From the NCBI GenBank assembly GCA_016205145.1, contig JACQJH010000002.1, positions 420,001 to 452,000 of the forward strand: DNA of 32,000 nucleotides, written 5' to 3'. The position numbers and the translations under genes were made by a program. The notes beneath the pieces were generated by a model. That model saw only the letters and a list, made by a program, of their open reading frames with translations, searched no databases and was not told the DNA's origin. The DNA is from Candidatus Iainarchaeum sp. GTDB lineage: Archaea > Iainarchaeota > Iainarchaeia > Iainarchaeales > JACQJH01. Of the stretch, positions 4,584-30,093 are shown one piece after another. The stretch's first letter is position 1; each line of letters opens with the position of its first letter.

Positions 4584-4638
4584 GGGTACTGCGCAACAGC
4601 GAAGTACCCGTCGTCGAACCCGGCGGACGAAACCGCCG
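4584..4638 (+). repeat. Diverged copy of the modular hairpin repeat family (copy a)
   Basis: It has a GGGTAC/GTACCC hairpin (4584-4609), then GTCGTCGAACC, then the small hairpin CGGCGG-ACGAAA-CCGCCG (4621-4638). The architecture matches the copies at 11374-11443, 25817-25873, 28074-28122 and 30039-30093. Confidence 0.75.
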
Positions 4639-4651
4639 AAGGGGAGATGGG

Positions 4652-4678
4652 GGAGAGAAAAAAATCTTTTTTCTCTCC
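4652..4678 (-). terminator. Perfect 12-bp hairpin with an internal T-run, downstream of the 4693..5001 gene
   Basis: GGAGAGAAAAAA-atc-TTTTTTCTCTCC. On the minus strand a T6-7 run falls in the 3' arm, 15 nt after the stop codon. Confidence 0.55.
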
Positions 4679-4692
4679 GCCAAGAATGAATT

Positions 4693-5001
4693 TTACCAGA
4701 TCGGGTAGGGCACGTAGTCACGTCCTTTCCACGCGTGCTTTTTGAATTCCATGAACTGCCATTCCTGGAGGTTCCAGCCCGCCACGAGGGCGAGTATGGC
4801 TGCCGCCAGCAAGGGAAACGGCCCCATGCCGAATTTTGCAAGCAACACTACTGCTCCGAAAAGGCAGCCGAATGCTGTCGAAAGGTTCCAGCTCTGCTTT
4901 ATGAGCAGATCCCTGTAACCGTGTATGAGGTCATACCTTGTAAGATGCCCTTGTTCCCTGACGGGAACCCTGATGTGCGGAACTGCTTCATATCCAGCCA
5001 T
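4693..5001 (-). CDS. Small two-TM membrane protein, paralog A
   Basis: 102 aa with two hydrophobic segments. It shares the pattern [IL]R[VI]PV.E....(R)..L...Y.D ... 2 TM ... PYP[IK][WF] with the adjacent 5008..5352 gene. Confidence 0.65.
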   Translation of the reverse strand: MAGYEAVPHIRVPVREQGHLTRYDLIHGYRDLLIKQSWNLSTAFGCLFGAVVLLAKFGMGPFPLLAAAILALVAGWNLQEWQFMEFKKHAWKGRDYVPYPIW

Positions 5002-5007
5002 GCTTCA

Positions 5008-5352
5008 TCACCCCTTGAACTTCGGATAAGGAATATTGTGCCTTGAAAACACTATGTCCTTGAATTCTGTCATCCTTTTGAAAAACCTGAGTTCGAAGCC
5101 GAGCACGAAGCCGAATGGAACCACGAGCAGGTTTATGACCGGATGAGGCAGAACGACAATTATGCCGAAAACGCAGAAAATCATTTTGAGCATTGCCTTT
5201 GCCTGGTTGACGCGCATGTCAACGTATTGTTCGAGAAGCTTGTGCCTTGAAAAGTGCGGCGCTTCCTCGACCGGAATCCTGAGCTGAATGCTTTCGTCTT
5301 CCTCGCGCCAATTTTTGGTCGATTTTGTTTGTTCTCTCCCCATAAACACCAC
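5008..5352 (-). CDS. Small two-TM membrane protein, paralog B
   Basis: 114 aa with the same architecture as 4693..5001. It has its own AAGGAGTGGTG Shine-Dalgarno, and a TATA-like CTTAAATAGG lies upstream on the minus strand (about 5399-5410). Confidence 0.65.
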   Translation of the reverse strand: MVFMGREQTKSTKNWREEDESIQLRIPVEEAPHFSRHKLLEQYVDMRVNQAKAMLKMIFCVFGIIVVLPHPVINLLVVPFGFVLGFELRFFKRMTEFKDIVFSRHNIPYPKFKG

Positions 5353-5445
5353 TCCTTAATTGTAGGAAGTGAATACTGTACATATTGGTGCCCCTCACCT
5401 ATTTAAGCCTTTCCCGTTGCAACAGATTGCCAGTAAACCGCACTT

Positions 5446-5841
5446 TCAAGGCATTTTAGGCGTTTTTGGCCCGGAAAACAAGGTCCCTTTCAGGCTTTTT
5501 ATGGTTCCGCTTGTCCTCTGGCTTTCAGCCAGGCCTGAAGCGTTTATCGCCTGTTTTGCCTTGCCGGACACGGCGAGTGGCCTTGCGCAACGGCAGATGC
5601 CATGGCTTTCTGACAGCACAATGACGGTTATCAGCGGCTTTCCGAACCGCGAGTTGAAAGCGTTTTCCAGGGCATGCCTGCCGGCTTTTCCGAAAAACCG
5701 TCCGGCGGCTTTGCCCTTGAATTTGAACAGCAGATAGCGTTTTTTTTGCCGCTTGCTCGGCCTTATTCTTGCAGGCTTTTTTCCAACAAGGCTTGGATGT
5801 TTAAGCCCTGCGGTTTTGCCGCTACTTCCTTTTTCCGGCAT
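5446..5841 (-). CDS. rnp2: RNase P protein component 2 (Pop5/Rpp14 family)
   Basis: RPSKRQKKRYLLFKF ... ICRCAR ... SGTIKSLK matches the Pop5 pattern (R.K.RYl.fe ... vrc.r ... SGTik). The start is set at ATG 5841, 7 nt after the HD gene stop. Confidence 0.75.
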   Translation of the reverse strand: MPEKGSSGKTAGLKHPSLVGKKPARIRPSKRQKKRYLLFKFKGKAAGRFFGKAGRHALENAFNSRFGKPLITVIVLSESHGICRCARPLAVSGKAKQAINASGLAESQRTSGTIKSLKGTLFSGPKTPKMP

Positions 5842-5848
5842 TGCTTTT

Positions 5849-6400
5849 TCAGGCACCCATTCCACCCAGTGTTTCGTCGCAGCCGGCCATGGCAAGGAGT
5901 TCCTTTTCCAGTCCTAGGACCGCCGGATAGGCTTTTTCGATTGTTTCCCTGAAAGCGTTTCCCTTCACGCCATAGCGGTTGAAAAGGTATGCGAACCGTT
6001 CGCCAAGCGAAACAAGGGAGTCATGCCTTACCCTCTTGTCGGCGTAAAAGACGATTTTTGCCTCAAGCGAATTCAGGCCCTCGCCGCCTTCCTTGAGTAT
6101 GGTGCCAAGCATGTGCTTTTTGACTATTTCCGCGACCTTCGGCATGCCTTCCCCGACGAGAATTTCAAACGACTTTTCGCCGTGGATTTCCGGGTTTGAA
6201 AAAGAGTAATGCTTGTCGATGTCGTGCAGCAAAGCCGATGCGCTCACCACCGCCTTGTTGACTTTAACGCCTTTCGCATCCATGCGCTCCGCCAGGAACA
6301 TCGCCACTTCGTGCACTTTCAGGGAATGCGCGACAATGTGCTGTGGAACACCGTGCTTTTCAAGCAGGTCAAGGCAGCTTTTAACTGACATCACGGCCAT
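5849..6400 (-). CDS. HD-domain metal-dependent phosphohydrolase
   Basis: The pattern H..V...A..LA ... ALLHDIDK is typical of HD/HDIG proteins. The start is placed at ATG 6400, about 25 nt downstream of the minus-strand TATA-like ATTTATTTTTTTT (likely leaderless). The longer track ORF looks like a spurious extension. Confidence 0.8.
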   Translation of the reverse strand: MAVMSVKSCLDLLEKHGVPQHIVAHSLKVHEVAMFLAERMDAKGVKVNKAVVSASALLHDIDKHYSFSNPEIHGEKSFEILVGEGMPKVAEIVKKHMLGTILKEGGEGLNSLEAKIVFYADKRVRHDSLVSLGERFAYLFNRYGVKGNAFRETIEKAYPAVLGLEKELLAMAGCDETLGGMGA

Positions 6401-6434
6401 GCAACCAACAGAACTTGCTGCAAAAAAAATAAAT

Positions 6435-6824
6435 ATGCGTGCAGGCAAACAAATCGTAATGGGATTGGAAACAATAATCATTGCATTGGCCCTCGTTGCA
6501 ATTGCCATTGCCGCGTACGCATTCATCGCGTTCAGGCGCATGAAGCTCGCATTGGCAAAAAAACAGAAGGCCTCCCCGGCAAGGATTGCCCTGACAGCCG
6601 CATACCTTGCAATAATGCTTTTCATTGCGGCAAAAATCTTTGCCGAACCGCGGTTTTTCGCCGGCCTCGGCAAAGACAACGCCGGCCTGATTGAAGGCAT
6701 TGCCGGAATTGGAAAAGAAAACATCCTGCTTTTGCTTGCATTGCCCGCGGTTTTCCTGCTCGGAATTCTGGCACTTAAACTGAAAAGGAAAAAATTGCCG
6801 CAGAAAGAATGGCAAGCAAAATGA
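6435..6824 (+). CDS. Small membrane protein (about 3 TM), function unknown
   Basis: Three hydrophobic segments and a basic C-terminus. It converges on L15e. The alternative start ATG 6399 would overlap the HD gene start. There is no recognisable family. Confidence 0.5.
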   Translation: MRAGKQIVMGLETIIIALALVAIAIAAYAFIAFRRMKLALAKKQKASPARIALTAAYLAIMLFIAAKIFAEPRFFAGLGKDNAGLIEGIAGIGKENILLLLALPAVFLLGILALKLKRKKLPQKEWQAK

Positions 6825-6846
6825 AATAACGGGAAAATGCCAATGC

Positions 6847-7446
6847 TTACTTCTGCTTCTTTTTCTGCGCGGCGCGCTTTGAAGGCCTTGACTTTTCAGT
6901 TCCCTCGCCTTTGTTCCAGTGGCCCCTTGACTTCTTGCCTTTTGCAGTCAGGCCGCGGTTCGCCCTGCCTTTGTGGACTGGAAAGGTAATCCATTCAAGG
7001 TTCTTGTCGGCAATGATTGCCGGATGCGCCACATCAACAAGGATTACTTCAAAGTATTTGCGCTGGCCGTCCTCGCCGACATAATAAGAGTTCAAAACTT
7101 CGCAGTTGGCATACTTTTTGGCCGCCCTTGCTTCCGCAATGGCCTGGATTGACAGGTTGCGCGTCAGCCTTGTTATGCCCATGCGCTTTGGCCTTCTGCC
7201 AGCGTTCGGGCGCAGGTGCTGGCCGCCGCCCTTGCGGATGCGCACCCTTGCAACCACAAAGCCTTCCTTGGCCTTGTAGCCTAATTTCCTTGCCCTCGGC
7301 AGGTTTGTCGGCTTTTCAACCCTCACAATGGCTTCCGGCTCGTTCCTGTACGCGATTATGCGCTGCCTCAGGATAGCCTTGTAATCGTAGGCCTTGTCCT
7401 TCTTGCCGCCGAATTCCTTTTCAAACGTCTGCTGGATTGCTTTCAT
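6847..7446 (-). CDS. rpl15e: 50S ribosomal protein L15e
   Basis: RARKLGYKAKEGFVVARVRIRKGG ... YFEVILVD is characteristic of eL15. The start is taken at ATG 7446. Confidence 0.93.
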   Translation of the reverse strand: MKAIQQTFEKEFGGKKDKAYDYKAILRQRIIAYRNEPEAIVRVEKPTNLPRARKLGYKAKEGFVVARVRIRKGGGQHLRPNAGRRPKRMGITRLTRNLSIQAIAEARAAKKYANCEVLNSYYVGEDGQRKYFEVILVDVAHPAIIADKNLEWITFPVHKGRANRGLTAKGKKSRGHWNKGEGTEKSRPSKRAAQKKKQK

Positions 7447-7574
7447 TGCCGGCACAAAAAACACCCTCAAAATTCAAAACAAAAAAACCTGCCTCAAAAT
7501 CTTGAAAAAAGAATTTCAAGAAAAAGAAACGCAATAATAGCTTTTTTCAAGGCAAGCTTTTAAAGGGTTTCTAT

Positions 7575-7757
7575 GCCCGCTTTCGCGCGGCGGTTTCGTC
7601 CGCAGCCGTCTCGTCCGGCTGGTTCGAACCAAGGCGTATTGCTGATCGCAATACGCCGAGTATGCTGTTTGTGCATAAGTGGTATTGCGCAAGCAATACC
7701 ACGCAAGGGGTTTGCAAGGGGCGCTAGCCCCTGCGTTGTGACACGCCGAGTAAGCAG
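7575..7757 (-). repeat. Modular hairpin repeat, copy B, with an internal 80-nt insertion or duplication
   Basis: 7589-7662 is near-identical to 9673-9746 and to the reverse complement of 11369-11443. The element resumes at 7753 (AGCAG) after a segment flanked by direct ACGCCGAGTA repeats (7653-7662 and 7743-7752). The strand given is the one that carries the ACGAAA loops. Confidence 0.85.
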
Positions 7758-7816
7758 TTGTAAAATTTCTGGTTATGCGAATGCCCATACAAGCCGATTT
7801 CACCAAACATGGCAAT

Positions 7817-8491
7817 CTATGGCTGTGCGCGCCTTTGCGGCAAGGAATTGCTCTTTCCGTGCCTTGCCTTCCACGCCCTGACTTCCTCAAGCGTTTTGGG
7901 TCGCGGCTCGCCGTAGCCTTGCACGCCGGCTTCGCCTTGCTGTTTCCAGCGGAAATCGCGTATCCTATCAAGCCACTGCCTGCGGCGCGTTTCAATCGGC
8001 GTGCCGTCACGCCAGTTTGAATCAGCCTTGCCAAGCATGTTTTTCCGCGCCGTGCTCACGGTTTCATCCAGGCCATGATAAACTTTCCGACCCGGAAACC
8101 TTTTCGCCAGGTCCTTTGAAATTGCCGCCTCAACCCTTTGGCCCATGCCGAGGCCCGAAAACCTTTCAAAGCCCAAATTATTAAACGGGTAAAACTGGCC
8201 ATACCGCAAACGGCTGCCAAGGTCCTTGATTTCAATGTCACCGATTTTGACGTTTGCGTGCAGGTTATGTGATTTCACGACTTCCGCAAGTGCCGGTGAG
8301 CCTATGTAGCCGACAAATTCACCGCGGCGGGGCGCACTCCGAACAGCATAAGACTGCGTGTCAACCAGCAAAACCTCATAAGCAATTACTTCTTCGCCCT
8401 CTATGTTCCTTTTGTTTCTCCGCCAGATTTCCAGGCCATACCTTGCGCCCTTCCGGCCCGGCTTGCTTGCACTGCTGCCGCTTTCCGCCAT
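7817..8491 (-). CDS. Hypothetical protein, 224 aa (weak GNAT-like G.G.G segment only)
   Basis: This is the C-terminal part of the 540-aa track ORF. The start is set at ATG 8491 (MAESGSSASKPGRK...) because the upstream part is antisense to the thiolase gene. I recognise no confident family. Confidence 0.55.
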   Translation of the reverse strand: MAESGSSASKPGRKGARYGLEIWRRNKRNIEGEEVIAYEVLLVDTQSYAVRSAPRRGEFVGYIGSPALAEVVKSHNLHANVKIGDIEIKDLGSRLRYGQFYPFNNLGFERFSGLGMGQRVEAAISKDLAKRFPGRKVYHGLDETVSTARKNMLGKADSNWRDGTPIETRRRQWLDRIRDFRWKQQGEAGVQGYGEPRPKTLEEVRAWKARHGKSNSLPQRRAQP

Positions 8492-8527
8492 GCAAATAAA
8501 AGCGTTGCTTCGGCTTAAAATAGTTTT
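8492..8527. promoter_or_regulatory. 36-nt bidirectional promoter spacer with two opposed TATA-like boxes
   Basis: CAAATAAAAG lies about 25-30 nt upstream of ATG 8528 on the plus strand. AACTATTTTAAG lies about 25 nt upstream of ATG 8491 on the minus strand. This implies leaderless mRNAs in both directions. Confidence 0.45.
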
Positions 8528-9538
8528 ATGGGCGACAAAGCCAAGGCGAAAAAGTGCGAAAGGTGCGGGAAGGCTGCGAAAATGCACCTTTCTTACGGTC
8601 CGCACGACTACTGCGAAAAGCATTTCACGGAATTTTTCGAGCATCGCGTGCGCAAAACCATCCGGGTGAACGGCCTCGTGAAGCCGGGTGAAAAGGTTTT
8701 GGCCGGCGTTTCCGGCGGCAAGGACTCGCTCGTTACGCTGTATCTTTTGCACAAGATTTTCAGCCCGGCAATCCGGCTTGAAGCGCTCATGATTGACGAA
8801 GGCATTCCAGGCTACAGGGAAAAGGCATTGAAAATCGCAAAAGCCCATTGCAAGGACTGGAACGTTCCGTTCACCGTCGTTTCGCACAAGTCCGAATTCG
8901 GCAAAACCACAAGTGACGTTTTTCACGCAATCGGCGGCGAAAAGGCGGTGGAAAGCGCGTGCGCTTACTGCGGGCCGATGAGAAGGGAAATCCTCAACAA
9001 GTACGCGGTCCAAGGAAATTTTGACAAGCTTGCGACCGGCCACAACCTCGACGACGAATGCCAGAGCATTCTCATGAATGTTTTCGACAACGACACAAAG
9101 AGGATGGGGCGGCTGGGGCCGATCGCGGATTCCGATGAAACCGGCGCAATGGTTCCGCGCGTAAAGCCTCTTTACCTCTCCCCTGAAAAGGAAGTGATTG
9201 CCTTTGCCGCGTTCTCTGGCATTGAAACCTACAGCGAAGAGTGCTGCCCTTTCAGCTGGCAGGCCAAAAGAAATGCTTTCAGGGAAATGCTCAACAGCAT
9301 GGAGGAAAGGTTTCCGGGCTCGAAATTCAAAATCATCGGCTTCCTCGAAGGATTCAAAAAAACCGCCAATGCAAAAAAAACGTCCGAACAAAACCAAAGC
9401 GCGCAAAGTCATAAAAGCCAGAACCGCGAAACCACGCAAAGCCTTCTCCTTGAAAGGCTCGGAAAGCTTGAGAGGAAAACGCGTGCAAAAAACCGCAGGG
9501 ACAAAACTTTGACGTGCGCAACGACAAAGCTTGCCTGA
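8528..9538 (+). CDS. PP-loop ATPase, tRNA 2-thiolation protein (Ncs6/NcsA/TtuA family)
   Basis: It has an SGGKDS PP-loop, an N-terminal CxxC...C..H zinc finger, GHNLDDE and a C-terminal CC motif. A basic low-complexity tail follows. Confidence 0.85.
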   Translation: MGDKAKAKKCERCGKAAKMHLSYGPHDYCEKHFTEFFEHRVRKTIRVNGLVKPGEKVLAGVSGGKDSLVTLYLLHKIFSPAIRLEALMIDEGIPGYREKALKIAKAHCKDWNVPFTVVSHKSEFGKTTSDVFHAIGGEKAVESACAYCGPMRREILNKYAVQGNFDKLATGHNLDDECQSILMNVFDNDTKRMGRLGPIADSDETGAMVPRVKPLYLSPEKEVIAFAAFSGIETYSEECCPFSWQAKRNAFREMLNSMEERFPGSKFKIIGFLEGFKKTANAKKTSEQNQSAQSHKSQNRETTQSLLLERLGKLERKTRAKNRRDKTLTCATTKLA

Positions 9539-9582
9539 GGCTTAATTTTTAATTAATTGCCTTCAAAAAAAGTTATCTGCAC

Positions 9583-9654
9583 GGGCCTGTGGTCTAGTGG
9601 TATGATGTCTCCTTGACGTGGAGAAGACCGGCGGTCCGATTCCGCCCGGGCCCA
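9583..9654 (+). tRNA. tRNA-Val (anticodon GAC)
   Basis: Manual cloverleaf: acceptor GGGCCTG/CGGGCCC, anticodon arm TCTCC-TTGACGT-GGAGA, T arm GGCGG-TCCGATT-CCGCC, discriminator A. An AT-rich TATA-like box lies about 30 nt upstream (9543-9558). Confidence 0.85.
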
Positions 9655-9749
9655 AAGCCGATTTCGTCCGGCGGCGGTTTCGTCCGCAGCCGTCTCGTCC
9701 GGCTGGTACGAACCAAGGCGTATTGCTGATCGCAATACGCCGGGTAAGC
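9655..9749 (-). repeat. Modular hairpin repeat, copy C, starting immediately after the tRNA-Val 3' end
   Basis: It contains three small hairpins with TTTCGT or TCTCGTC loops, then GGCGTATTGC-tgatc-GCAATACGCC. 9673-9749 differs from the reverse complement of 11366-11443 by one substitution and one indel. Confidence 0.9.
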
Positions 9750-9817
9750 TATTTTTTCGATTGCCGCGTCAATTCTTCCGCCAGGCGCGTTTTACGCCAA
9801 ACCGCCGGCATGAAAAC

Positions 9818-9868: not shown

Positions 9869-11338
9869 ATGGACAGAAGACAAATCCTTTTGGACAGCGT
9901 GAAAAAGCTTGTAGCGCTGGACGTTTCCGACGAGGAAATAATCCTCAACCTGAAAGACGTGGGCCTGTCGCAGGGGGAATCGGAAAGGCTCATCCGCGAG
10001 GCAAAAGGCAAGCCTGTAGCGGAAGAAGTCCTTGAAGAGGTCAAAAGCGATTCCGGCAAGGTTTTGCGCGACGTCGCTGAAAGGCTTGCAATGGCCGAAC
10101 CGCCTTCCGCGCCCGAACCGGTGATAATGGAAAGGCGCGCGGCCGAGGAGCCGAAAATCGTGGTGCAGAAAACAGTCAACCTGAACAAGCTCTGGGAAAA
10201 AGGCATTCTCACGACGGTTGACCAGAAACTTGGCGAAATGGAACGGCTCAAAAAAAGCCTTGACGACGTCATCGACAGGAAAATTTCGGACGCGTCAAAA
10301 AAAGGCGTTGAACGGCTCACGGTTCTTTTCGAGTCGAAGGCCTCGCTGCTGTCCGCCAAGGTCGACGCGCAGCTGGAAGCAAAATCCGCGGAACTCACAA
10401 AAATCATCGACGCAAAGGTCAAGGAACTCAAGGACATAAATTCGGGCATAAAATCCAACCTCTCCGAGCTTGAAAAAAAGCGCCAGGAACACGACGATGC
10501 GGTGAAGGATTTTGACGGCAAAATTGCGGCGCTTGAAAACGCGAAAAAAACAATCATGTCCGAAGCCACTGCGGAACTCATAAAGTCGAAAAGCGAAATG
10601 CAGGATTTCCTCGACAATTCAAGGGAAAAAATGCAGGAAATAGACGAAAGGGTTTCAAGGACGCTCGAACTCGAATCCAAAATAGCGGAAGGCCTGCTTA
10701 AAGACGCGGAAGCAAAAATCGACGAAATGGCTTTGGCGAAAAGCGACGAACTGGCGCAGCGCGTTGAAAAGGAGCTCAAAAGCATTTCCGCGCTCAAGGC
10801 CGAGGTCGACCCCGGCAAAATCCGCGCGGAACTCGACAGCATCCGGGAAAAAAGCGACAGTCTCGCGTCCTTCGCCGGCTCGCTGAGGCAGTCAAACCAG
10901 CGGGCAGTTGAAAAAATGCAGAAGGATTTGTTCAAGGAATCCGAGGACAAACTTGTTGAAATTTTCTCGATGCAGAAGCAGGCGGCGGACAAGAAAGCCG
11001 ACAACGCAATAGCGCGGCTGGACTCTTACCGGGCCAGGATTGAAAAGGAAGTCGACCCGGAAAAATTCTCGGAAGAAATGAAGAACCTTGACGTGTTCAA
11101 GCAGCAGTTCATCAGGGTTATAGAGGAGAACGTCAAAAAATTCAACGAGTCGGTCGGCAGGCTGAATGCAATGGCCCAGGACCTTGACAAAAGGGGCGGC
11201 GAGAGGATAAAGCGGATTGACGCGAAAATAGCAGAGCTTGAAGCCTTTGAAAAGAATTTCGCCGACGAAATGGGCATCGCGGTCGAAAAGCTCGCGGAAA
11301 AGGAAAAAAAGAAAGAGCAGGCGAAAAAGAAAAACTGA
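9869..11338 (+). CDS. Long coiled-coil protein, 489 aa, function unknown
   Basis: It has a globular head of about 45 aa, a Pro/Ala linker, then about 400 aa of heptad-like K/E/L/A/S-rich sequence. The start is set at ATG 9869, since the upstream part of the track ORF runs through the repeat element. Confidence 0.75.
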   Translation: MDRRQILLDSVKKLVALDVSDEEIILNLKDVGLSQGESERLIREAKGKPVAEEVLEEVKSDSGKVLRDVAERLAMAEPPSAPEPVIMERRAAEEPKIVVQKTVNLNKLWEKGILTTVDQKLGEMERLKKSLDDVIDRKISDASKKGVERLTVLFESKASLLSAKVDAQLEAKSAELTKIIDAKVKELKDINSGIKSNLSELEKKRQEHDDAVKDFDGKIAALENAKKTIMSEATAELIKSKSEMQDFLDNSREKMQEIDERVSRTLELESKIAEGLLKDAEAKIDEMALAKSDELAQRVEKELKSISALKAEVDPGKIRAELDSIREKSDSLASFAGSLRQSNQRAVEKMQKDLFKESEDKLVEIFSMQKQAADKKADNAIARLDSYRARIEKEVDPEKFSEEMKNLDVFKQQFIRVIEENVKKFNESVGRLNAMAQDLDKRGGERIKRIDAKIAELEAFEKNFADEMGIAVEKLAEKEKKKEQAKKKN

Positions 11339-11365: not shown

Positions 11366-11517
11366 GCTTACCCGGCGTATTGCGATCAGCAATACGCCTT
11401 GGTTCGTACCAGCCGGACGAAACCGGCTGCGGACGAAACCGCCGTCCGAGCGAAGCGAGGCAGCGCTATGCGAGCAAAGCGAGCATAGTGCGTCGGCACA
11501 CCCGCTCGAAAGCGGGT
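11366..11517 (+). repeat. Modular hairpin repeat, copy D (two tandem units), abutting the tRNA-Ala 3' end
   Basis: Components in order: GGCGTATTGC-gatca-GCAATACGCC (11374-11398); AGCCGG-ACGAAA-CCGGCT (11411-11428); GCGG-ACGAAA-CCGC (11429-11442); a 36-nt module (11461-11496) identical to 25817-25852; and ACCCGCT-cgaa-AGCGGGT (11500-11517). Confidence 0.9.
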
Positions 11518-11591
11518 TGGACCGGGCGAGACTCGAACTCGCGGCCTCCACAATGCCAATGTGGCGATCTACCAGGCTGATCTACCGGCCC
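11518..11591 (-). tRNA. tRNA-Ala (anticodon GGC)
   Basis: Manual cloverleaf: acceptor GGGCCGG/CCGGTCC with the G3:U70 alanine identity pair, anticodon arm CCACA-TTGGCAT-TGTGG, T arm GCGAG-TTCGAGT-CTCGC, discriminator A. A TATA-like CATTAAAAAGC lies about 30 nt upstream. Confidence 0.9.
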
Positions 11592-19589: not shown

Positions 19590-19695
19590 AAAAGGCATCG
19601 GCGGGCTAAATTGTTTTAACACAAGCCTGCCCGGAAGGCAGAGGGTTCGAGTGCAACGAGAACCCTCAACGCGCACAAGCCGGGCGTTCGGCTTT

Positions 19696-19804
19696 GCAGG
19701 GATGGCTGAGTTCGGTTAAAGGCACCACGCTCGAGCGGATTTTATGGTCTAGGGCAACGTGGAGCCTCGCAAGAGGCACGTGGGTTCAAATCCCACTCCC
19801 TGCG
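19696..19804 (+). tRNA. tRNA-Ser (anticodon CGA) with a 21-nt intron at the canonical 37/38 position
   Basis: Acceptor GCAGGGA/TCCCTGC, discriminator G. The anticodon stem CCACG...CGTGG is interrupted by 19736-19756. It has a long variable arm GCCTC-gcaa-GAGGC and a T arm GTGGG-TTCAAAT-CCCAC. Confidence 0.85.
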
Positions 19805-20334: not shown

Positions 20335-22489
20335 TCAAATCTCCTTCCACGTTCCGCCGCAGTAATTGGTGATTTTTTCGCAGATTTCCTTCAAGGCGTT
20401 TTTGCAGTAATCGTCTGACATCAGATTGTTGCCCTGCACGTACAAAACAATGTGCCTTGTGCCGTTGTCGACCTTTGTGTGCTCGCACTGCTTTTCGTCA
20501 AGCCAGCAGATTACTTCCTTCGAGTCTTCAACCGCAAAGCCGCCTTTCGGGATTTCCTTTTTCGCCTGCGAGCCAAGCGGGGTGTAAGGCGTTTTGCCAT
20601 CATAAATCCTGAAGCGGATGTCGCCTGAAAGCTTGCTTATGTCGTGCGCTCCCACGACAACCTTGCGCCGCAATGAAACCAGGTTGTATGCATCCACCGC
20701 AGTGTTGATCTGCGGGAGTTTGCCCTGCACTTTCACCTGCTCGACAAGGTTGCGGACGGAATTCGTCACGTTTGAAATGCCAAGGCGGTCGTAAACTTTT
20801 TCGTATTCGCGTATCAGGTTGTTCGCTTCCGGCGACGACAAATCGGTTTTTTCGGCCGCATCCTTTTTTTCGCGCTCCAGGCCGGAATGCTTGTTCTTGA
20901 TTTTCGCGTTTTCGACGACGGCGGAAAAGACTTTCAGGCCCAAGCCCATAACGTCCTTGTCGACTACGACTTTTATTGGCCGCGCAGTTTCAACTTTTTC
21001 CTCGAACTTCATTTTCTGGAAAAGCACTTCGCCTTTTTTTGTCTTCGCGCCCGCTTTGAGCAGATTGAATTTCGTGTCCTTCCACAGGCCAGCCTTCACG
21101 CCCAATTGCGCGTTGATTTTGCCGCTTGTCTCCGGCATGAAAGGGGAAATTAGAATTGAAATTATGCGCAGGGAATCTGCAAGGGAGTAAAGCGTTTCGT
21201 CAAGCTGTTTGCCGGACTGCTTCCAGGGCTCGCGCTCGTTAATGAACTTGTTGCAGGAGCCCATGAAAGCGAAGGTTTCGTTCAGCGCCTCGTGGAACTC
21301 GAATGCGTCCATCTTTTCTTGGATTTTTTTCAGGTTCAGGCTTTTCTGGAGGCCTGCATTGGTTTTGGATTTCGGTATTTTGCCCGCATGGTATTTTTCA
21401 AGCATGACTATTGTCCTGTTCAGCAGGTTGCCCAGTTCGTTTGCCAGCTCGTTGTTTATGCGTTCAACCAGCGCCTGCTCGGAAAAACTTCCGTCCTGGC
21501 CGAAAGGTATTTCGCGCATCAGGTAATATCGCACCGCGTCAACCGGATAGCGCTGAACCAATTCCAGGGGGTCTATGACATTGCCCAGGGACTTTGACAT
21601 TTTTTCGCCCGAAGCGGTGTTGATGAAGCCGTGCACCCAGACCTGTTTCGGCGGCGCAATGCCCATGGACTTGAGCATTGAAAACCAGATGGCAGAGTGG
21701 AACCAGACAATGTCGACGCCGATGTTTTGCACGTTTGCCGGCCAGAAGGTTTTGAAGTTTTTGTCAGGCCAGCCTACGCCGGTGAGATAGTTGACGAGGG
21801 CATCCCACCAGACGTAAATTGTGTGTTTTTTGTCGTTGGGCAACGGAATGCCCCAGCTGAAAGAAGTGCGTGAAACGGACAAGTCGCGCAAAGGCTCGGC
21901 TTTGATGCGGTTGAGGATTTCAAGGCGTTTGCCTTCCGGCCGCACGATTTCAGGATTTTTTTCAAGCAGGTCAACCAGGTATTTCTGGTATTTTGCCATG
22001 CGGAAAAAATAGCTTGGCTCGGAAACGGGTTCTGCGGACACCTTGTGCATTTTGCACTTGCCGTCAGCAAGGTCCTTTTCGAGATAGAATGCTTCGCATT
22101 GCGCGCAGTAAAGGCCCTCGTACTTGCCCAGGTAAATGTCGCCGTTGTCGAGCGCGAGCTTGAACAGCTGCCGGCACTTCTTTTCGTGGTCCTTGTCCGT
22201 GGTGCGGATGAAGCGGTCGAAGGAAAAATTCCAGGCATTGCACAGGGCCTTGAAGTGAACGGACATTTCGTCGACGTATTGCTTGGGCGGCTTGCCGGCG
22301 GCTTCCGCTTTTCTTTGGATTTTCTGGCCGTGCTCGTCCGTGCCCGTCAGGAAGAAAACCTTTTCGCCGAGCAGGCGGTGGTACCTCGCCTGGACGTCCG
22401 CGCACGTCTTTTCATAGGCGTGGCCGAAGATGGGGCTTGCTGGAAGGATAATCAATTGCAGTCGTCACGTAAAAGGTTTTTCCCGCCAT
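20335..22489 (-). CDS. metG: Methionyl-tRNA synthetase (bacterial-like MetG) with a C-terminal B3/B4-type domain; reading frame interrupted by one extra nucleotide at about 22426
   Basis: The track ORF (TTG 22455) lacks the N-terminus. ATG 22489 has an AGGTGA Shine-Dalgarno 8 nt upstream and encodes MAGKTFYVTTAIDYPSSKPHL in another frame. Joining it across the extra C gives ...PHLGHAYEK, a perfect HIGH motif. Also present: TDEHGQKI and KMSKS. The span is 2155 nt, which is 3n+1. Confidence 0.9.
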
Positions 22490-23575: not shown

Positions 23576-23576
23576 A

Positions 23577-25005: not shown

Positions 25006-25011
25006 AGAAAA

Positions 25012-25575
25012 ATGTCCTTGACTCCGAGCGATTATTTCAAAGTCAAGCCCGGCGAAAAGGCGCCGGATTTTTCCCTGCCCGCGACTGACGGCAAATCGTA
25101 TTCGCTGAAAAGCTTTGCCGGCAAAAAGGCTTTGCTTGTCATTTTCATCTGCAACCACTGCCCTTATGTGAAGCCAAAGTTTTCAAAGCTCATTGAACTG
25201 CAGGCAAAATACGGCGGAAAAGGATTGCAAGTAGCGGGCATCTGCGCTAACGATGCCGAGGATTACCCGGAAGACAATTTCGTGAACATGAAAAAGGAAG
25301 TGAAAAAGCGCGGCATAAATTTCGTTTATTTGCGCGATGAAAGCCAGGAAACTGCAAAGGCTTACGGCGCGGGCTGCACTCCCGACCCTTTTCTCTTTGA
25401 CGCTGAACAAAAACTTGTTTACCATGGCCGCATTGATGACGCGCATGGCAAGCCGCACGAAGAGGCTGCAACAAACGAGCTGGAAGAAGCCATTCAGCAG
25501 GTTCTGGCCGGGAAAAAGGTTTCAGTGAAAGCCGAGCCGAGCCTCGGGTGCAGCATCAAATGGAAAAAAACCTGA
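25012..25575 (+). CDS. Thioredoxin-fold redoxin (AhpC/TSA-like) with a CNHCP motif
   Basis: APDFSLPATDGKSYSL ... LVIFICNHCPYV ... GCSIKW is typical of this thioredoxin-like family. Confidence 0.8.
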   Translation: MSLTPSDYFKVKPGEKAPDFSLPATDGKSYSLKSFAGKKALLVIFICNHCPYVKPKFSKLIELQAKYGGKGLQVAGICANDAEDYPEDNFVNMKKEVKKRGINFVYLRDESQETAKAYGAGCTPDPFLFDAEQKLVYHGRIDDAHGKPHEEAATNELEEAIQQVLAGKKVSVKAEPSLGCSIKWKKT

Positions 25576-25797
25576 ATTTTCGGGCGGAAAAAAAAGGCCA
25601 ACTATCATTTTTATATTTTGGAAATCTTTTTCCGGCGGCAAAACCGGTTCGGATTTGTAAGCTGGAATGCATAATAAGTTCAAGGCAATAAGTATTCTGG
25701 TTGGAAAAAAAAGCGCTTTTTTGCCTCAGGCCGGACAAATTCTTTCTCCCAACGCGCGGCTGGCGAAAAAAGGCTTTTTTGCAAGGTATGCGGGGTT

Positions 25798-25874
25798 GCG
25801 AGCACAAAGTGCGAGCCAGCGCTATGCGAGCAAAGCGAGCATAGTGCGTCGGACCAGCCGGACGAAACCGGCTG
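25798..25874 (+). repeat. Modular hairpin repeat, copy e
   Basis: 25817-25852 is identical to 11461-11496 (36 nt). 25853-25874 is identical to 11408-11429 (22 nt) and includes AGCCGG-ACGAAA-CCGGCT. The module order is permuted relative to copy D. Confidence 0.9.
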
Positions 25875-25928
25875 AGGGGAAATGCACTCTAGCGACTGCA
25901 TTTTTAAGCCGGAAGACGGCGTTTTGTT

Positions 25929-28049
25929 TTGGGGGAATGCCTTTTGGAACTGGATTTTGAGGAAATCGAGAATTCCGGCCAGAATCCTTATGCGGAAAAG
26001 CTGGAAGCGTTTTTCGGCTCGGTTTACAGGAAAAACGTCGAAAGGCTTGTGGGCGAGTACCCTGAAAACAGGTCCCTGCTAGTCGACTTCAAGGAGCTTG
26101 AAAAGTTCGATTTCCAGCTGGCAGACGATTTGCTTGACAACCCCGATTATGTCATCGAGGCCGCCAAAAGCGCGCTGTCGCGCATCGACGTGCCCGCGCT
26201 TGAAATCGAAAAATTCGAGCCGCACATACGCTTTTTCAACCTGCCCAAGGACAGGAAGTTCCTCATCCGGGACATCAGCGCCGACCATTTGGGCAAAATG
26301 ATTGCGGTCGAAGGCATCATCAGGCAGATTACCGACGTTTTGCCCAAACTGAAGACCGCGGCCTGGCAGTGCAGGCGGTGCGGCAATGTTTACAAGAAAG
26401 AGCAGGGCCTGCACAAGGTTGTGACTCCGGCTGTCTGCCAGTGCAAGCAGCGCGACTTCGAACTGCTGGCGGAGCAGAGCATTTTCATTGACTACCAGAA
26501 AATCGAGATCCAGGAGTCATTGGAGAACATCAAGGGCAACGAGCAGGCGCAGAACATAACAATTTACGTTTCAAACGACATGGTGAACAGGGTAACGGCG
26601 GGAGACAGGACGCTTTTTGTCGGAATGCTGAGGCTCTCCCATCCGGACGACAAGAAAACCATTTACGGCAGGTTCCTTGACGCAACCTATTTGGAGGAAA
26701 CCCAGAAGGAATTCATGGAAGTCGAGGTTTCGCCTGAAGAGGAAAAGGAAATCAGGGAGCTTGCAAAGGATCCGAAGATTTACGACAAGCTTATTGCATC
26801 GCTTGCGCCCGGGATTTACGGCCACGAAATGGTCAAGGAAGCGATTGTCATGCAGTTGTTCGGCGGAGTCAAAAAGGTTCTGCCCGGCCAGCAGCAAATC
26901 AGGGGAAACATCCACGTCCTGCTGGTAGGCGACCCGGGCGCGGCAAAGTCGACAATACTGCTTGCAACCAACCGCATTGCGCCAAAATCTATTTACGTTG
27001 CGGGAAAGACAGCGACCGGCGCGGGCCTCAGTGCAACGGCAGTCAAGGACGAATTCGGCGAAGGCGGCTGGACTTTGAAGGCAGGCGTATTGGTTCTGGC
27101 TTCGGGTGGGTTGGCAGCAGTGGACGAGTTTGACAAGATGGAGACAGAGGACAGGAGCGCAATGCACGAAGCCCTTGAACAGCAGCAAATCAGCGTGGCA
27201 AAGGCAGGCATTGTGACAAGGTTCAAGTCCGACACAAGCGTTCTTGCCGCGGCAAACCCCAAATTTGCAAGGTTCGACCCATATCAGCCGTTCATCTCAC
27301 AGATCGACCTGCCGGCAACGCTCATTTCACGGTTCGATTTGTTTTTCATGATCCGCGACGTCCTGGACAGGCAGCGCGACGAGGAAATCACGGCGCACAT
27401 ACTCAAAACCCATCATGCAGGCGAGGCCCTGCTGCAGGCGAAATCAAAGGGCGAATCGCTTGCAAAATCCGAGCTTGAGGAAATCGAAAAGGTTTCAACC
27501 CCGCCCATCAGCGGCGAACTGTTCAAAAAATTCGTTTCATACGCGCGCCAGACAATGTTCCCTGTGCTGTCAAAGGACGCGGTTGAAATGATTTCAGAGT
27601 TTTATGTCAATTTGAGGAGCGAAGGCAAAAAGGACGGCAGTTATACCGCAACGCACAGGCAGTTGGAAGGCCTTGTCAGGCTGTCGGAGGCATCCGCAAA
27701 AATCAGGCTGTCCGACACCGTCGACAAGGAGGATGCGGCGCGCGCAATCAGGCTGGTGCGCACAAGCCTTGAAAACGTCGTGACTGACCCGGAGACGGGC
27801 AAGATTGACATTGACATCATCACAAGCGGGCAGACGCACACAAAGCTTACGAACATGAAAAAGGTTTTGCAGATAATCAAGGAAAAGTCCGTTGACCTGG
27901 ACATGGTGCCGATCGACGACATCGTTTCGGAAGCCGAAATCCAGGGAATAAGCAAGGAAAAAACAATGGACATCATTTCGGAACTGGACAAGAAAGGCGA
28001 AATCTACAAGCCGAGGCACCACTTTGTCAAGCCGACGCAGAAGAGCTGA
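25929..28049 (+). CDS. mcm: MCM replicative helicase
   Basis: Zinc motif CRRCG...CQC, Walker A GDPGAAKS, Walker B DEFDKM, arginine finger SRFDL, and a C-terminal winged-helix-like tail. There is no intein. The start is uncertain (TTG 25929 or TTG 25944). Confidence 0.93.
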   Translation: MGECLLELDFEEIENSGQNPYAEKLEAFFGSVYRKNVERLVGEYPENRSLLVDFKELEKFDFQLADDLLDNPDYVIEAAKSALSRIDVPALEIEKFEPHIRFFNLPKDRKFLIRDISADHLGKMIAVEGIIRQITDVLPKLKTAAWQCRRCGNVYKKEQGLHKVVTPAVCQCKQRDFELLAEQSIFIDYQKIEIQESLENIKGNEQAQNITIYVSNDMVNRVTAGDRTLFVGMLRLSHPDDKKTIYGRFLDATYLEETQKEFMEVEVSPEEEKEIRELAKDPKIYDKLIASLAPGIYGHEMVKEAIVMQLFGGVKKVLPGQQQIRGNIHVLLVGDPGAAKSTILLATNRIAPKSIYVAGKTATGAGLSATAVKDEFGEGGWTLKAGVLVLASGGLAAVDEFDKMETEDRSAMHEALEQQQISVAKAGIVTRFKSDTSVLAAANPKFARFDPYQPFISQIDLPATLISRFDLFFMIRDVLDRQRDEEITAHILKTHHAGEALLQAKSKGESLAKSELEEIEKVSTPPISGELFKKFVSYARQTMFPVLSKDAVEMISEFYVNLRSEGKKDGSYTATHRQLEGLVRLSEASAKIRLSDTVDKEDAARAIRLVRTSLENVVTDPETGKIDIDIITSGQTHTKLTNMKKVLQIIKEKSVDLDMVPIDDIVSEAEIQGISKEKTMDIISELDKKGEIYKPRHHFVKPTQKS

Positions 28050-28052
28050 AGG

Positions 28053-28122
28053 CGGGCGAAAGCGAGCCTGTTCGGTTGAGCCTATGCTCAACCGGGCGTC
28101 GAACCAGCCGGACGAAACCGGC
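28053..28122 (+). repeat. Modular hairpin repeat, copy f, directly after the mcm stop
   Basis: GGTTGAGC-ctat-GCTCAACC (28074-28093), then GGGCGTCGAACCA, then GCCGG-ACGAAA-CCGGC (28107-28122). Confidence 0.8.
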
Positions 28123-28163
28123 GTGTCAAATTGCTCCAAAGGCAAAAGCCGTATTAGAGAAAA

Positions 28164-28385
28164 ATGTTCCACTACTTCCAATACAACCGCGACAAATTCT
28201 TGAAACACTACCACGCAAGAAGCAATGTAGAAACCACGTTCATGGCCTTAAAAACCAAATTCAACGACTGCCTAAAAAGCAAAACAAAGGCCGCACAAGT
28301 CAACGAGCTACTGCTCAAAGTTCTATGCTTCAATATCGTGCAAGTAATACACGAAACAAACGAATTAGGCATAAAAACAGATTGA
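28164..28385 (+). pseudogene. C-terminal remnant of a DDE transposase (IS4/IS5-like)
   Basis: KHYHARSNVETTFMALKTKFNDCLKSK....QVNELLLKVLCFNI matches the Y..R..vEt.F..lK..fg ... E ... N signature around the catalytic Glu of DDE_Tnp_1-type transposases. An in-frame TAG at 28155 closes the frame upstream, and no N-terminal catalytic part is present. Confidence 0.65.
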
Positions 28386-28393
28386 AACCTTAT

Positions 28394-28744
28394 ATGAACA
28401 TGGCAAGAGAAACAGAACGAAAAGCAATTGAGTTCGTTCTACAATACGAGAAAGAACAGGGCAGAACCCCCAAAGAACTTAAACAAGGGCACGGATACGA
28501 TGTGGATTCAAATGACCGCCAAATTGAAGTCAAAGGACAGGGCGAAGATAACCCGCAATTCGTTCTTTTGAATGAACACAACATCAAGGCAATGCAACGA
28601 GAACCAAATTGGTATCTTTACATAGTTTATGGGATAAAAAACTATAATCCAAAAATAAAGATTTTCCAGAAGCCGGAAGTTCTTGAACGTGCCAAATTTT
28701 CTATTACCTGGGAAGTTCCATTAAGGAAAGCCGATTTGCAATAG
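28394..28744 (+). CDS. Minimal DUF3883-like (PD-(D/E)xK nuclease fold) protein, 116 aa
   Basis: E..A.EFVLQYEKEQG......GHGYDVDS.DRQIEVKG......FVLLNEHNIKAM......YLYIVY fits the DUF3883 core pattern (GyD...iEVK ... t.nE ... y.l..V). The second half is AT-rich. Confidence 0.6.
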   Translation: MNMARETERKAIEFVLQYEKEQGRTPKELKQGHGYDVDSNDRQIEVKGQGEDNPQFVLLNEHNIKAMQREPNWYLYIVYGIKNYNPKIKIFQKPEVLERAKFSITWEVPLRKADLQ

Positions 28745-28753
28745 GGAATTTTT

Positions 28754-29056
28754 ATGTCAGAAATTAAATTTGAAATAGAAGCTTCTTTTGCAAATGATTT
28801 GAAAGTCTACCTTCAAAACGAGGGTATTCGCGCTGAAACTGAATTTGAATTGTCAGAACAGGAAATTATTCGATTTGCATTAATTGCAATTGATTGGGGG
28901 CAGCGCATAGTTTTTGTGCTTTCCTTGCTTAAATGGCTCGCCGAAAAAAGAAATCAGGAAGAACACCCAAAATTTAAACTGCATTACGACGGAGAGATAA
29001 TAACTGAATTTGATGCGCTCCGCGAGCATTTAAAACGCAAAGGAATCCTAAAATAA
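28754..29056 (+). CDS. Small hypothetical protein, 100 aa, very AT-rich
   Basis: The open frame starts 9 nt after the previous stop. It has one hydrophobic or amphipathic central segment (IIRFALIAIDWGQRIVFVLSLLKWL). No family is recognised. Confidence 0.5.
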   Translation: MSEIKFEIEASFANDLKVYLQNEGIRAETEFELSEQEIIRFALIAIDWGQRIVFVLSLLKWLAEKRNQEEHPKFKLHYDGEIITEFDALREHLKRKGILK

Positions 29057-29169
29057 CCATTGTGCAAGTATTCAAATTTCTGTATAAGCCCAAACAAGGA
29101 TTTCTTACACAAAGCTGCGCAAAGCTAAAATATTAAATCCTTGAAAGCCGTTAGTTTACTGTTTTACAG

Positions 29170-29991
29170 ATGAACAAGGAGCTTTTGGCGCGGCTTGTAC
29201 TCCTGTTTGTCGTGACGCAGGCGATCGGCCTGTTTGTCGCGGGCACGCTTGTAAGGGACGATGTCAAGGCAACGTTCATCACGGACAACCCTGATGACGT
29301 GGAAAACTCCGTCGGCCTCATTGTTTACATTCTTTTTTTCACCGCCTGCCTTCTGGTCGCAATAAGGTTTTTTGCCGGGCGCATAAGGCTGCTTTTCAGA
29401 GTAATCGAACTGCTCGCGGTGTTTGGAACCTCGGTCATAGTCTTTTCGGCTTTTTTTCCGGAGGCTGCATTGCACTTCGCTTTGCTTGTGCTGGCGCTCA
29501 AGCTTGCCGTTCCGGACAGCATTGCATTGCGAAACGCGACCGCCGTTATTGCGACTGCCGGCGCCGGAAGCCTTGTCGGCGTATCATTGGGGATTCTGCC
29601 GGTAATCGTTTTCATCGCCATCCTGTCGGTTTATGACCTCATCGCGGTTTTCGGAACAAAGCACATGATTGTCATGGCAAAGGCAATGACAAAGGAAAAC
29701 GTTTCGTTCACTTTCGCCTTGCCCACCAAAGAGCACACTTTCGAGCTTGGCACGGGCGACATGGTCATTCCATTGGCATTCGCTTCCTCCGTGCTTGCGG
29801 CAAACGCCAAGGCAGTTGCATTCCCGCTGTCGTATGCAATGCCTGCATTGCTTTTGCTTGCCTCGCTTGCCGGCCTGCTGTGGACGATAAATTTCATTTC
29901 AAAGCGCGTGGGCATGGCCCTTCCCGCATTGCCGCCGCAGACAGTTTTGATGCTTGCGGTTTTCGTTGCAGGCAAGGCAATAGGATTATAA
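29170..29991 (+). CDS. Presenilin/signal-peptide-peptidase-like intramembrane aspartyl protease (A22 family)
   Basis: It is polytopic, with the catalytic motifs YD (SVYDLIAVF) and GxGD (LGTGDMVIP), plus a C-terminal PALP. Confidence 0.8.
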   Translation: MNKELLARLVLLFVVTQAIGLFVAGTLVRDDVKATFITDNPDDVENSVGLIVYILFFTACLLVAIRFFAGRIRLLFRVIELLAVFGTSVIVFSAFFPEAALHFALLVLALKLAVPDSIALRNATAVIATAGAGSLVGVSLGILPVIVFIAILSVYDLIAVFGTKHMIVMAKAMTKENVSFTFALPTKEHTFELGTGDMVIPLAFASSVLAANAKAVAFPLSYAMPALLLLASLAGLLWTINFISKRVGMALPALPPQTVLMLAVFVAGKAIGL

Positions 29992-30038
29992 AAAAGGCGA
30001 AAGCACGCCCGCGCCGGCCGGACAAAAGCAGCTTACTC

Positions 30039-30093
30039 GGCCGTTCGCAGCAGCGGACGGCCCTGGTTTCGGACCAGCCGGACGAAACCGGCT
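30039..30093 (+). repeat. Modular hairpin repeat, copy g, between the convergent presenilin-like and DedA genes
   Basis: GGCCGTTCGC-agca-GCGGACGGCC (30039-30062, one G-T pair), then CTGGTTTCGGACC, then AGCCGG-ACGAAA-CCGGCT (30076-30093). Confidence 0.8.

Follow-up and report, generated by a model that had tools for sequence, protein, structure and literature searches.

Genomic context and repeat sites

The 32-kb stretch of contig JACQJH010000002.1 analysed here (the window) comes from a Candidatus Iainarchaeum genome and is an archaeal core-gene region in which seven intergenic sites carry short palindromic elements built around a small hairpin with the loop ACGAAA. Pfam scans identified genes for exosome subunits (operon at 648-2915), SBDS, proteasome alpha, L15e, a TtuA-like PP-loop ATPase, LSM, MinD, methionyl-tRNA synthetase (MetRS), MsrA/B, a redoxin, MCM, a presenilin-like peptidase and translation factors; three tRNA genes are also present, one of them with an intron. 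The closest named homologues of the MCM and proteasome proteins belong to Candidatus Diapherotrites/Iainarchaeum and share 60-70% identity.

Contigs of relatives were obtained through exact-protein look-ups and provide three layers of comparison, namely a sister population (L083, L207-L214 and L221; 91-93% nucleotide identity to the window), a congeneric relative (contig L224; 79-85% identity) and other genera, represented by L084 (22 kb), L222 (14.7 kb) and the contigs L065 and L223 of the metagenome-assembled genome (MAG) GCA_043808155.1 (34-35% GC). Logan unitigs from the runs SRR12113383, SRR12113384 and SRR12113385 match the window at 100%. Copy counts cover the window and about 43 kb around it.

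All seven intergenic sites reported in an earlier sequence-only reading of the window were recovered, with corrected bounds for site 1 and for site 7, which begins near 29997. Their composition is as follows.

4581-4638, +: site 1; hairpin GGGTACT..AGTACCC, linker GTCGTCGAACC, small hairpin CGGCGG-ACGAAA-CCGCCG
7575-7757, -: site 2, the largest mosaic; 5' motif GCTTACTCGG, hairpins AGGGGC/GCCCCT and GTGGTATTGC/GCAATACCAC, second 5' motif GCATACTCGG, hairpin GGCGTATTGC/GCAATACGCC, linker TTGGTTCGAACC, then three small hairpins with the loops ACGAGA, ACGAAA and GCGAAA
9655-9749, -: site 3; 5' motif, hairpin GGCGTATTGC/GCAATACGCC, linker and a series of three small hairpins, with GCCGG-ACGAAA-TCGGC as the final one, ending 2 nt from the 3' end of tRNA-Val
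11366-11517, +: site 4; an A-type unit (5' motif, GGCGTATTGC hairpin, linker, AGCCGG-ACGAAA-CCGGCT, GCGG-ACGAAA-CCGC) and a B-type unit (GCGAAGCGAGGCAGC, GCTATGC..GCATAGT hairpin, GCGTCGGCAC, ACCCGC-TCGAAA-GCGGGT), ending flush with the 3' end of tRNA-Ala
25798-25874, +: site 5, B-type; GCGAGC-AAA-GCGAGC, GCTATGC..GCATAGT hairpin, GCGTCGGACC, AGCCGG-ACGAAA-CCGGCT; its end is 55 nt upstream of the MCM start, and the redoxin stop is 220 nt from the site
28053-28122, +: site 6; GCGAAAGC mini-hairpin, hairpin CGGTTGAGC/GCTCAACCG, linker GGGCGTCGAACC, GCCGG-ACGAAA-CCGGC; directly 3' of the MCM stop
29997-30093, +: site 7; GGCG-AAAGCA-CGCC mini-hairpin, 5' motif GCTTACTCGG at 30031, hairpin GGCCGTTCGC/GCGGACGGCC (one G.T pair), linker CTGGTTTCGGACC, AGCCGG-ACGAAA-CCGGCT; its end is 2 nt from the stop of a convergent VTT-domain gene

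An eighth site was found at about +37.8 kb (L218 1-70), downstream of a CoA-ligase-type gene and at the end of a Logan unitig. It reads GGGTTTGCAAGGGGTGCAACCCCTGCAGTGCAGACTCGCTTCGCTCGGACGCGCTTTCGGTCGG and has modules in common with sites 2 and 4. Unitigs built from short reads of the source sample are interrupted at the copies of the element.

Architecture of the repeat unit

Read on the ACGAAA strand, a unit consists of an A-rich lead-in with a 5' motif, at least one long hairpin, a linker that ends in TCGNACC and one to three small hairpins. The 5' motif ahead of the long hairpin is conserved as GCWYACYCGG in sites 2, 3, 4 and 7. The loop of the small GC hairpin is ACGAAA, with the variants ACGAGA, ACGTGA, ACGGAA and TCGAAA, while the long hairpins can be of almost any sequence. 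The elements are polar and 55-185 nt long, and small hairpins as well as units are arranged head-to-tail inside each site; at sites 2-4 the sequence GGACGAAACC recurs in tandem with a 16-nt period. Two main unit types can be distinguished, the A type with GGCGTATTGC/GCAATACGCC and related stems and the B type with GCGAGC-AAA-GCGAGC motifs and the GCTATGC/GCATAGT hairpin. Smaller modules occur too, many of them with GCGAAGC or GCGAAAGC, both of which are very stable mini-hairpin sequences. This modular layout of invariant loop and linker with replaceable but complementary helices had been proposed from the letters of the window, and we found it at all sites, with the stems as they had been described.

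Counting linker (TCGNACC) plus GC hairpin with ACGAAA loop as a full unit, the seven sites hold eight units and four extra small hairpins. The nine exact ACGAAA loops previously counted are located at 4627, 7594, 9662, 9678, 11417, 11433, 25862, 28112 and 30082, and the two ACGAGA variants in sites 2 and 3. For hairpins that combine an ACGAAA loop with a stem of 4 bp or more, 300 dinucleotide shuffles of the window gave 0.56 ± 0.77 (maximum 4) against the nine observed, so that the motif is more common than composition predicts. ACGAAA/TTTCGT is the sole hexaloop seen more than twice in the window and the sole over-represented one. Similarly, GGACGAAACC is present in eight exact copies and in 14 with at most one mismatch, compared to 2.9 expected. 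A covariance model (R1) built from linker and small hairpin and scanned on the window retrieved eight full units, none of them in coding sequence. All sites fall into the intergenic fraction (≈10%) of the window; the elements amount to ≈730 nt or about a quarter of the intergenic DNA, and the gene-dense stretches of 5-14 kb between sites are free of them.

The small stems covary beyond shuffled controls: 93.7% of the cells are paired, both sides have changed in four of six pairs, and the covariation score was reached by none of 500 shuffles. Among 26 distinct hairpins with 193 pairs, 186 pairs are of the Watson-Crick type (≈97%), five are G.T on the ACGAAA strand and one is A.C. The fold of site 1 has a z value of -5.7.

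Gain, loss and turnover between relatives

Gain, loss and rebuilding of elements outpace the divergence of the flanking genes. Compared to L224, in which site 1 is empty, the window shows a clean insertion of 58 nt (AGCA|element|AAGGGG), with neither a target-site duplication (TSD) nor terminal inverted repeats (TIRs). Site 7 is missing in L083, where the intergenic gap has 16 nt versus 104 nt in the window, and so are site 6 and the adjacent 1-kb islet, leaving 80 nt between MCM and the presenilin-like gene. At the position of site 5, L083 carries different modules (GGCGG-ACGAAA-TCGCC and GCCG..CGGC), and the downstream MCM promoter region is conserved. The flanking DNA of L083 is 92-93% identical to that of the window. 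The islet that, relative to L083, was inserted together with site 6 is outside the repeat family and has the following content.

28123-29110, +: low-GC islet (≈45%) beside site 6
28164-28385: DDE_Tnp_1 C-terminal fragment
28398-28744: NOV_C/DUF3883 restriction-endonuclease-like open reading frame (ORF)
within the islet: 100-aa ORF with no family match

The 3' end of the tRNA-Ala gene also shows this turnover. Ten contigs from different samples, with identical LSM gene and tRNA-Ala upstream, show four element configurations at this position, all of which begin at the nucleotide that follows the discriminator base of the tRNA. The commonest configuration (five samples; L209 and L211-214) is the site 1 subtype with 90.6% identity. 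A homologous hairpin in site 2 and L210 differs by two fully compensated double substitutions (GTGGTATTGC/GCAATACCAC versus GTGGTGTTTC/GAAACACCAC).

In L224, the TtuA-like gene includes a B-type unit of 63 nt on its sense strand, in frame, which adds 21 residues to the protein and is missing in three orthologs (window, L222 and L223). Taken together, insertion is clean, without target duplication or terminal inverted repeats, and the elements lie at the 3' ends of genes, where they are flush with the tRNA or come just after the stop codon; occasionally they are in frame in coding sequence.

A stretch of the native TtuA gene of the window (9123-9149, corresponding to L224 1570-1650, where the in-frame unit of L224 lies) reads ATCGCGGATTCCGATGAAACCGGC, which resembles a small palindrome followed by GAYGAAACCGGC, with similarity to the GACGAAACCGGC of the element. 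This similarity may represent a microhomology anchor or a preferred insertion target.

Probable inversion of the coiled-coil gene

Sites 3 and 4 enclose the following genes or abut on them.

9583-9654, +: tRNA-Val(GAC), 3' end abutted by site 3
9869-11338, +: coiled-coil gene, protein MBI4053464.1 (locus tag HY394_05515; 100% identical), between the convergent tRNA-Val and tRNA-Ala
11518-11591, -: tRNA-Ala(GGC), 3' end abutted by site 4

The coiled-coil gene is bracketed by inverted 58-nt copies of the repeat, whose left arm (9692-9749, site 3) and right arm (11366-11423, site 4) are 98% complementary. In L084, L222, L223, L224 and six sister-population contigs (L208, L209, L211-214) the ortholog points the other way; its direction in the relatives examined is that of LSM and tRNA-Ala. 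Independent contigs confirm the outer junctions of the arrangement in the window, L205 and L206 the one between site 4 and tRNA-Ala and L215 the one between site 3 and tRNA-Val. We therefore consider it very likely that the inversion is real. Established elements mark sites of rearrangement, of which the inverted gene between inverted copies is an example.

A different order is found in L210 (627-2021): behind tRNA-Ala come first a site-2-like mosaic and next a gene for an iPGM-like phosphoglycerate mutase, which takes the place of the coiled-coil gene.

Copies in other genera

GCA_043808155.1 contains two copies in 22.5 kb. The copy on L065, located after a TFB gene, agrees with the core of the window copies over 25 nt without a mismatch (TCGGACCAGCCGGACGAAACCGGCT). 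The copy on L223 (7134-7232) lies between the TtuA stop and the 3' end of tRNA-Val, in the same position and orientation as site 3, and consists of GCGTACCCGA, two AT-rich hairpins, TCCGTACC and CGCCG-GACGTGA-CGGCG. It has the 5' motif, the linker and the loop in common with the copies of the window. The long hairpins of L065 and L223 are AT-rich and unrelated to those of the window. Unpaired motifs and architecture are thus conserved across genera, with the helices rewritten.

When genome contigs were scanned with the 19-mer core, the matches listed included one true match (L065) and 79 chance matches in high-GC bacteria. A 24-mer had no match in JGI metagenomes, and a search of the same metagenomes for the tandem-loop pattern returned unrelated coding repeats only (e.g. 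L089 and L134). Viral, plasmid and phage collections gave no matches to the elements.

Nature of the repeat family

The sites most likely represent a lineage-specific, mobile and mosaic palindromic repeat family of the Iainarchaeota (Diapherotrites, DPANN). We assign it to mobile, selfish-type DNA because of the clean gain and loss, the non-orthologous placement of subtypes, the turnover of modules, the in-frame copy and the near-perfect palindromes. Since the conserved nucleotides are unpaired and strand-asymmetric, and since the GC-rich core is intact in a genome with 34% GC, the elements are probably recognised, most simply as a folded single strand, by a specific protein that acts in trans and whose gene would lie in another part of the genome. 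As TIRs and TSDs are absent, a mechanism of the HUH/Y1 type or templated recombination is suggested. The closest mechanistic model would be an HUH/Y1 transposase that works on hairpins of single-stranded DNA, as is the case for IS200/IS605 and for repetitive extragenic palindromic (REP) sequences with their REP-associated tyrosine transposase (RAYT). Taken by itself, we rate this single-stranded-DNA/Y1 step as less likely than not; the family might also spread through microhomology-guided gene conversion. Any benefit for the host, such as stabilisation of RNA 3' ends, would be secondary.

Several points weigh against this interpretation. No transposase or nuclease gene was found in the window or in the ≈43 kb around it, as judged from the window ORFs and the Logan extensions, and for the window itself the lack of a partner such as a Y1 transposase had been remarked before. 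The single DDE fragment (28164-28385) is the truncated remnant of a transposase, and end sequences to match it are missing; the few defined insertion junctions reveal no consistent target motif. L084 (22 kb) and L222 (14.7 kb) are free of copies, and the family is therefore patchy. The inversion rests on the source assembly because no independent contig or Logan unitig spans the 58-nt repeats, and the iPGM-like junction of L210 may be a further repeat-mediated rearrangement or a chimeric assembly. Finally, the orientation of about eight of ten loci in the sense direction past a protein gene, together with the bias in G.T pairs, is compatible with a function as RNA.

This last point leads to the alternative that the elements are structured RNAs of use to the host, namely 3'-untranslated-region elements on the ACGAAA strand which bind a protein via loop and linker and stabilise or terminate transcripts, as REP sequences do against 3' exonucleases. 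The ACGAAA strand is indeed the sense strand just past a stop codon at sites 2, 4, 6 and 7, in the L218 copy and in the copies after TFB (L065) and TtuA (L223); site 5 is sense as well, with the redoxin stop 220 nt upstream. The helices covary and the nucleotides that are conserved stay unpaired, the ACGAAA strand folds better by 5-7 kcal/mol at four of the seven sites, and the organism encodes an exosome. The bias towards sense copies behind stop codons noticed in the sequence-only reading is genuine (about eight of ten loci), although the redoxin stop is remote and the copies that flank tRNA genes (site 3, L207-L214) are, like site 1, antisense to the neighbouring transcripts. It is no proof of an RNA role because these tRNA-flanking copies are antisense and because the gene inversion has reshuffled orientations. 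The preference of G.T pairs for the ACGAAA strand likewise holds in direction, but with five G.T against one A.C in 193 pairs the asymmetry is weak, and stems that are ≈97% perfect with few wobbles are unlike old RNA helices. Covarying stems had also been taken as a sign of selection on structure. The covariation itself stands, but intra-strand template switching in DNA palindromes repairs both arms together, so that compensated stems need not mean selection on RNA, and the high share of Watson-Crick pairs fits young or template-corrected DNA palindromes. Moreover, the unit of L224 sits in frame inside a gene, copies are dispensable and swapped at the same genes between genomes of 92-93% identity, most copies lack a following T-tract, and no Rfam family matches even at E <= 5. 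A description as mobile DNA suits the family better than one as an RNA motif, and we regard the RNA alternative as unlikely.

A duplex-binding chromatin, topology or regulatory protein of the host would be another explanation, with the 16-bp-spaced GGACGAAACC copies as its binding sites, comparable to IHF or gyrase at bacterial interspersed mosaic elements (BIMEs), and with incidental palindromes. It would account for the tandem arrangement with its 16-nt period at sites 2-4, for the conservation of the core in a 34%-GC genome and for copies between convergent genes, where supercoiling builds up (sites 4 and 7). Yet the asymmetric motif is always part of a covarying hairpin, which a duplex binder does not need, long hairpins are kept despite completely different sequences, and presence or absence in close relatives as well as the in-frame copy are at odds with a required architectural role; we rate this explanation as improbable. 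Still less credible are conventional MITEs (miniature transposable elements with inverted repeats) or end fragments of a DDE-type insertion sequence (IS), such as the one whose remnant adjoins site 6. The elements are small, non-coding and dispersed, and a DDE_Tnp_1 C-terminal fragment does lie 42 nt downstream of site 6. However, the ends of the elements (GCWYACYCGG at the 5' and CCGGCT at the 3' side) are not inverted repeats, the junction of site 1 shows no target-site duplication, nothing element-like follows the stop codon of the transposase fragment, and the orientation of the fragment places the element at its deleted N-terminal part and not at an IS end. With no TIR, no TSD and no match in Rfam or in the phage, plasmid and viral collections, the copies are not fragments of a known IS or MITE. 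Chance, composition or faulty assembly can practically be dismissed as the source of the pattern: mis-joins at repeats call for general caution in metagenomes, and the L210 junction is possibly one, but the enrichment is far above that of shuffled sequences, the same junctions recur in independent assemblies from several samples, and the same architecture is found in an unrelated MAG.

Other identities were considered for individual parts and rejected. The sequence GGACGAAAC mimics the stem II/GAAA junction of a hammerhead ribozyme, but the CUGANGA box, a cleavage-site arrangement and an Rfam match are all missing. A pseudoknot of linker TTCGT with loop ACGAA shows no covariation (ACGTGA and ACGAGA keep the linker) and would leave a connecting loop of only 1 nt, and a closing helix between 5' motif and linker is not conserved. 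A tRNA-like T-arm in GGTTCGAACC lacks a supporting stem and was negative with ARAGORN and Rfam. Spacing and context do not fit CRISPR repeats or origin recognition boxes. Intrinsic terminators are not in agreement with the flanks, as T4 follows site 7 only and the other sites are followed by GAGG, GTGT or AAGG. The Rfam scan of the window brought three tRNAs alone to the gathering score and gave no overlap with the elements at E <= 5. The 224-aa gene beside site 2 was dropped as a candidate partner; neither Pfam nor NCBIfam gave a match for it, and the AlphaFold prediction is of no use (predicted local distance difference test score 38.9).

Comparison with known repeat systems

We compared the family with REP/BIME sequences and with the REPIN-RAYT systems (REPIN, REP doublet forming a hairpin) of E. 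coli, Pseudomonas and Stenotrophomonas (Nunvar 2010, PMC2817692; Bertels and Rainey 2011, PMC3116915; Di Nocera 2013, PMC3733652). As in REP/BIME, short hairpin-forming extragenic repeats form mosaics of several module types, are concentrated at gene 3' ends and between convergent genes with occasional intragenic copies, vary in their stem subtypes around conserved unpaired nucleotides, lack TIRs and TSDs and are hot spots of rearrangement. The eight units at seven intergenic sites in 32 kb and the eighth site at about +37.8 kb are short, palindromic and mostly extragenic. The host, in contrast, is an archaeon, and the conserved part consists of a hexaloop, a 7-nt linker and a 10-nt 5' motif. 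A GTAG tag at the foot of the hairpin is absent from every copy. CGTC is found 5 nt upstream of the stem in sites 1, 4b, 5 and 6 only; the other linkers are GGTTCGNACC or AACTCGGACC. CGTC REP families, among which the Rickettsia palindromic elements RPE-4 and RPE-6 are filed, have stems of 8-9 bp and loops of 4-5 nt (PMC3733652), whereas the stems here have 4-6 bp and the loops 6 nt. Unlike REPINs, the units are polar and head-to-tail, and the sole inverted pair (sites 3 and 4) is separated by 1.6 kb. No RAYT (Y1 transposase) gene was found among the ORFs of the window and the Logan extensions. Of the earlier proposal of a protein-recognised motif in the manner of REP/RAYT, the REP-like kind and a structure-based recognition can be retained, but the missing tag and the missing arrangement in inverted pairs speak against REP/RAYT proper.

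Rickettsia palindromic elements (RPEs), which Ogata et al. are said to have described in 2000, resemble the family as palindromic selfish DNA of a reduced genome that inserts in frame without destroying the gene, here the TtuA-like gene of L224 (63 nt, 21 aa). This in-frame insertion is an analogy rather than a sign of membership. The two have no sequence relationship, and one copy is intragenic here while most copies are intergenic and modular.

IS200/IS605 ends and the palindrome-associated transposable elements (PATEs) of haloarchaea lack TIRs and TSDs, possess subterminal hairpins, keep functional nucleotides unpaired on one strand and have a polarity; they are known in archaea. The absence of TIRs and TSDs, the subterminal hairpins, the unpaired position of the conserved nucleotides on one strand and the polarity are shared by the present elements, which are, however, much shorter and more modular, with no tnpA or tnpB nearby. 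The junctions examined have no common target of the fixed 4-5-nt IS200/IS605 type, and IS605-associated RNA motifs gave no Rfam match. Integron attC sites follow gene 3' ends, conserve their structure with free sequence and are recognised as a folded single strand. The present elements also follow gene 3' ends and keep structure while sequence varies, but they differ by the lack of an R''/R' core pair (RYYYAAC / GTTRRRY), of a cassette array and of an integrase, and the flanking genes are housekeeping genes in conserved synteny.

The family works like REP, BIME and RPE but is a member of no described family. The literature searched contained no description of REP-, BIME- or RPE-type elements in DPANN or Diapherotrites. 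A more speculative proposal, to which we give a rather small chance, is an archaeal counterpart of the REPIN-RAYT partnership or else a new structured motif of RNA or DNA, bound by a protein, that would serve the host next to tRNA genes and at the 3' ends of genes. In the REPIN-RAYT-like version, the module of 5' motif, TCGNACC and ACGAAA would be kept across genera, from 34% to 51% GC, by co-evolution with a dedicated HUH/Y1 or other nuclease, and the helices would be free to be rewritten.

DPANN genomes are very small, gene-dense and usually regarded as repeat-poor. Here, a single dynamic repeat family fills about a quarter of the intergenic DNA of a core-gene region, varies between genomes of 92-93% identity, breaks short-read assemblies, brackets an inverted gene and, in a relative (L224), has lengthened an essential enzyme of tRNA thiolation by 21 residues. 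The combination of an invariant unpaired core with replaceable helices across genera offers a handle for finding the enzyme. The family is also of use for strain typing and for an understanding of genome plasticity and of MAG fragmentation in DPANN.

Further observations

The gene at 7817 next to site 2 has 224 aa (7817-8491, minus strand), with a weak GNAT hint as the only indication of its kind. A minus-strand ORF of 540 aa (7817-9439) is mostly spurious and overlaps the real TtuA-like PP-loop ATPase gene (8528-9538, +). The 224-aa gene is missing between L15e and TtuA in L222 and L224.

A perfect 12-bp palindrome, GGAGAGAAAAAA-ATC-TTTTTTCTCTCC, at 4652-4678 follows a 102-aa gene and resembles a bidirectional terminator. 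It has a covarying counterpart, GGAGGGAAAAAAA/TTTTTTTCCCTCC, in L224 (5252-5280) and is separate from the repeat family.

T-rich tracts directly follow tRNA-Val and tRNA-Ala in relatives (L084 393-505, L222 and L223), and GC hairpins have taken their place at both tRNAs of the window. The tRNA-Val gene has an intron in L084 and none in the window. The intron-containing tRNA of the window (19696-19804, +) was detected by Rfam (44.3 bits) and missed by ARAGORN; a hairpin, GAGGGTTC..GAACCCTC, is located just upstream at 19641-19667. Free-standing LAGLIDADG endonuclease genes adjoin tRNA genes in relatives (L223 1240-2013; L222 13588-14661), and MCM variants with inteins (≈1070-1230 aa) are present in other Diapherotrites.

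The MetRS of the window (20335-22455, minus strand) carries a C-terminal B3_4 domain at residues 559-679. The usual home of this domain is the beta subunit of phenylalanyl-tRNA synthetase, and a fusion to MetRS is unusual; the ortholog of L084 has 492 aa and no B3_4 domain.

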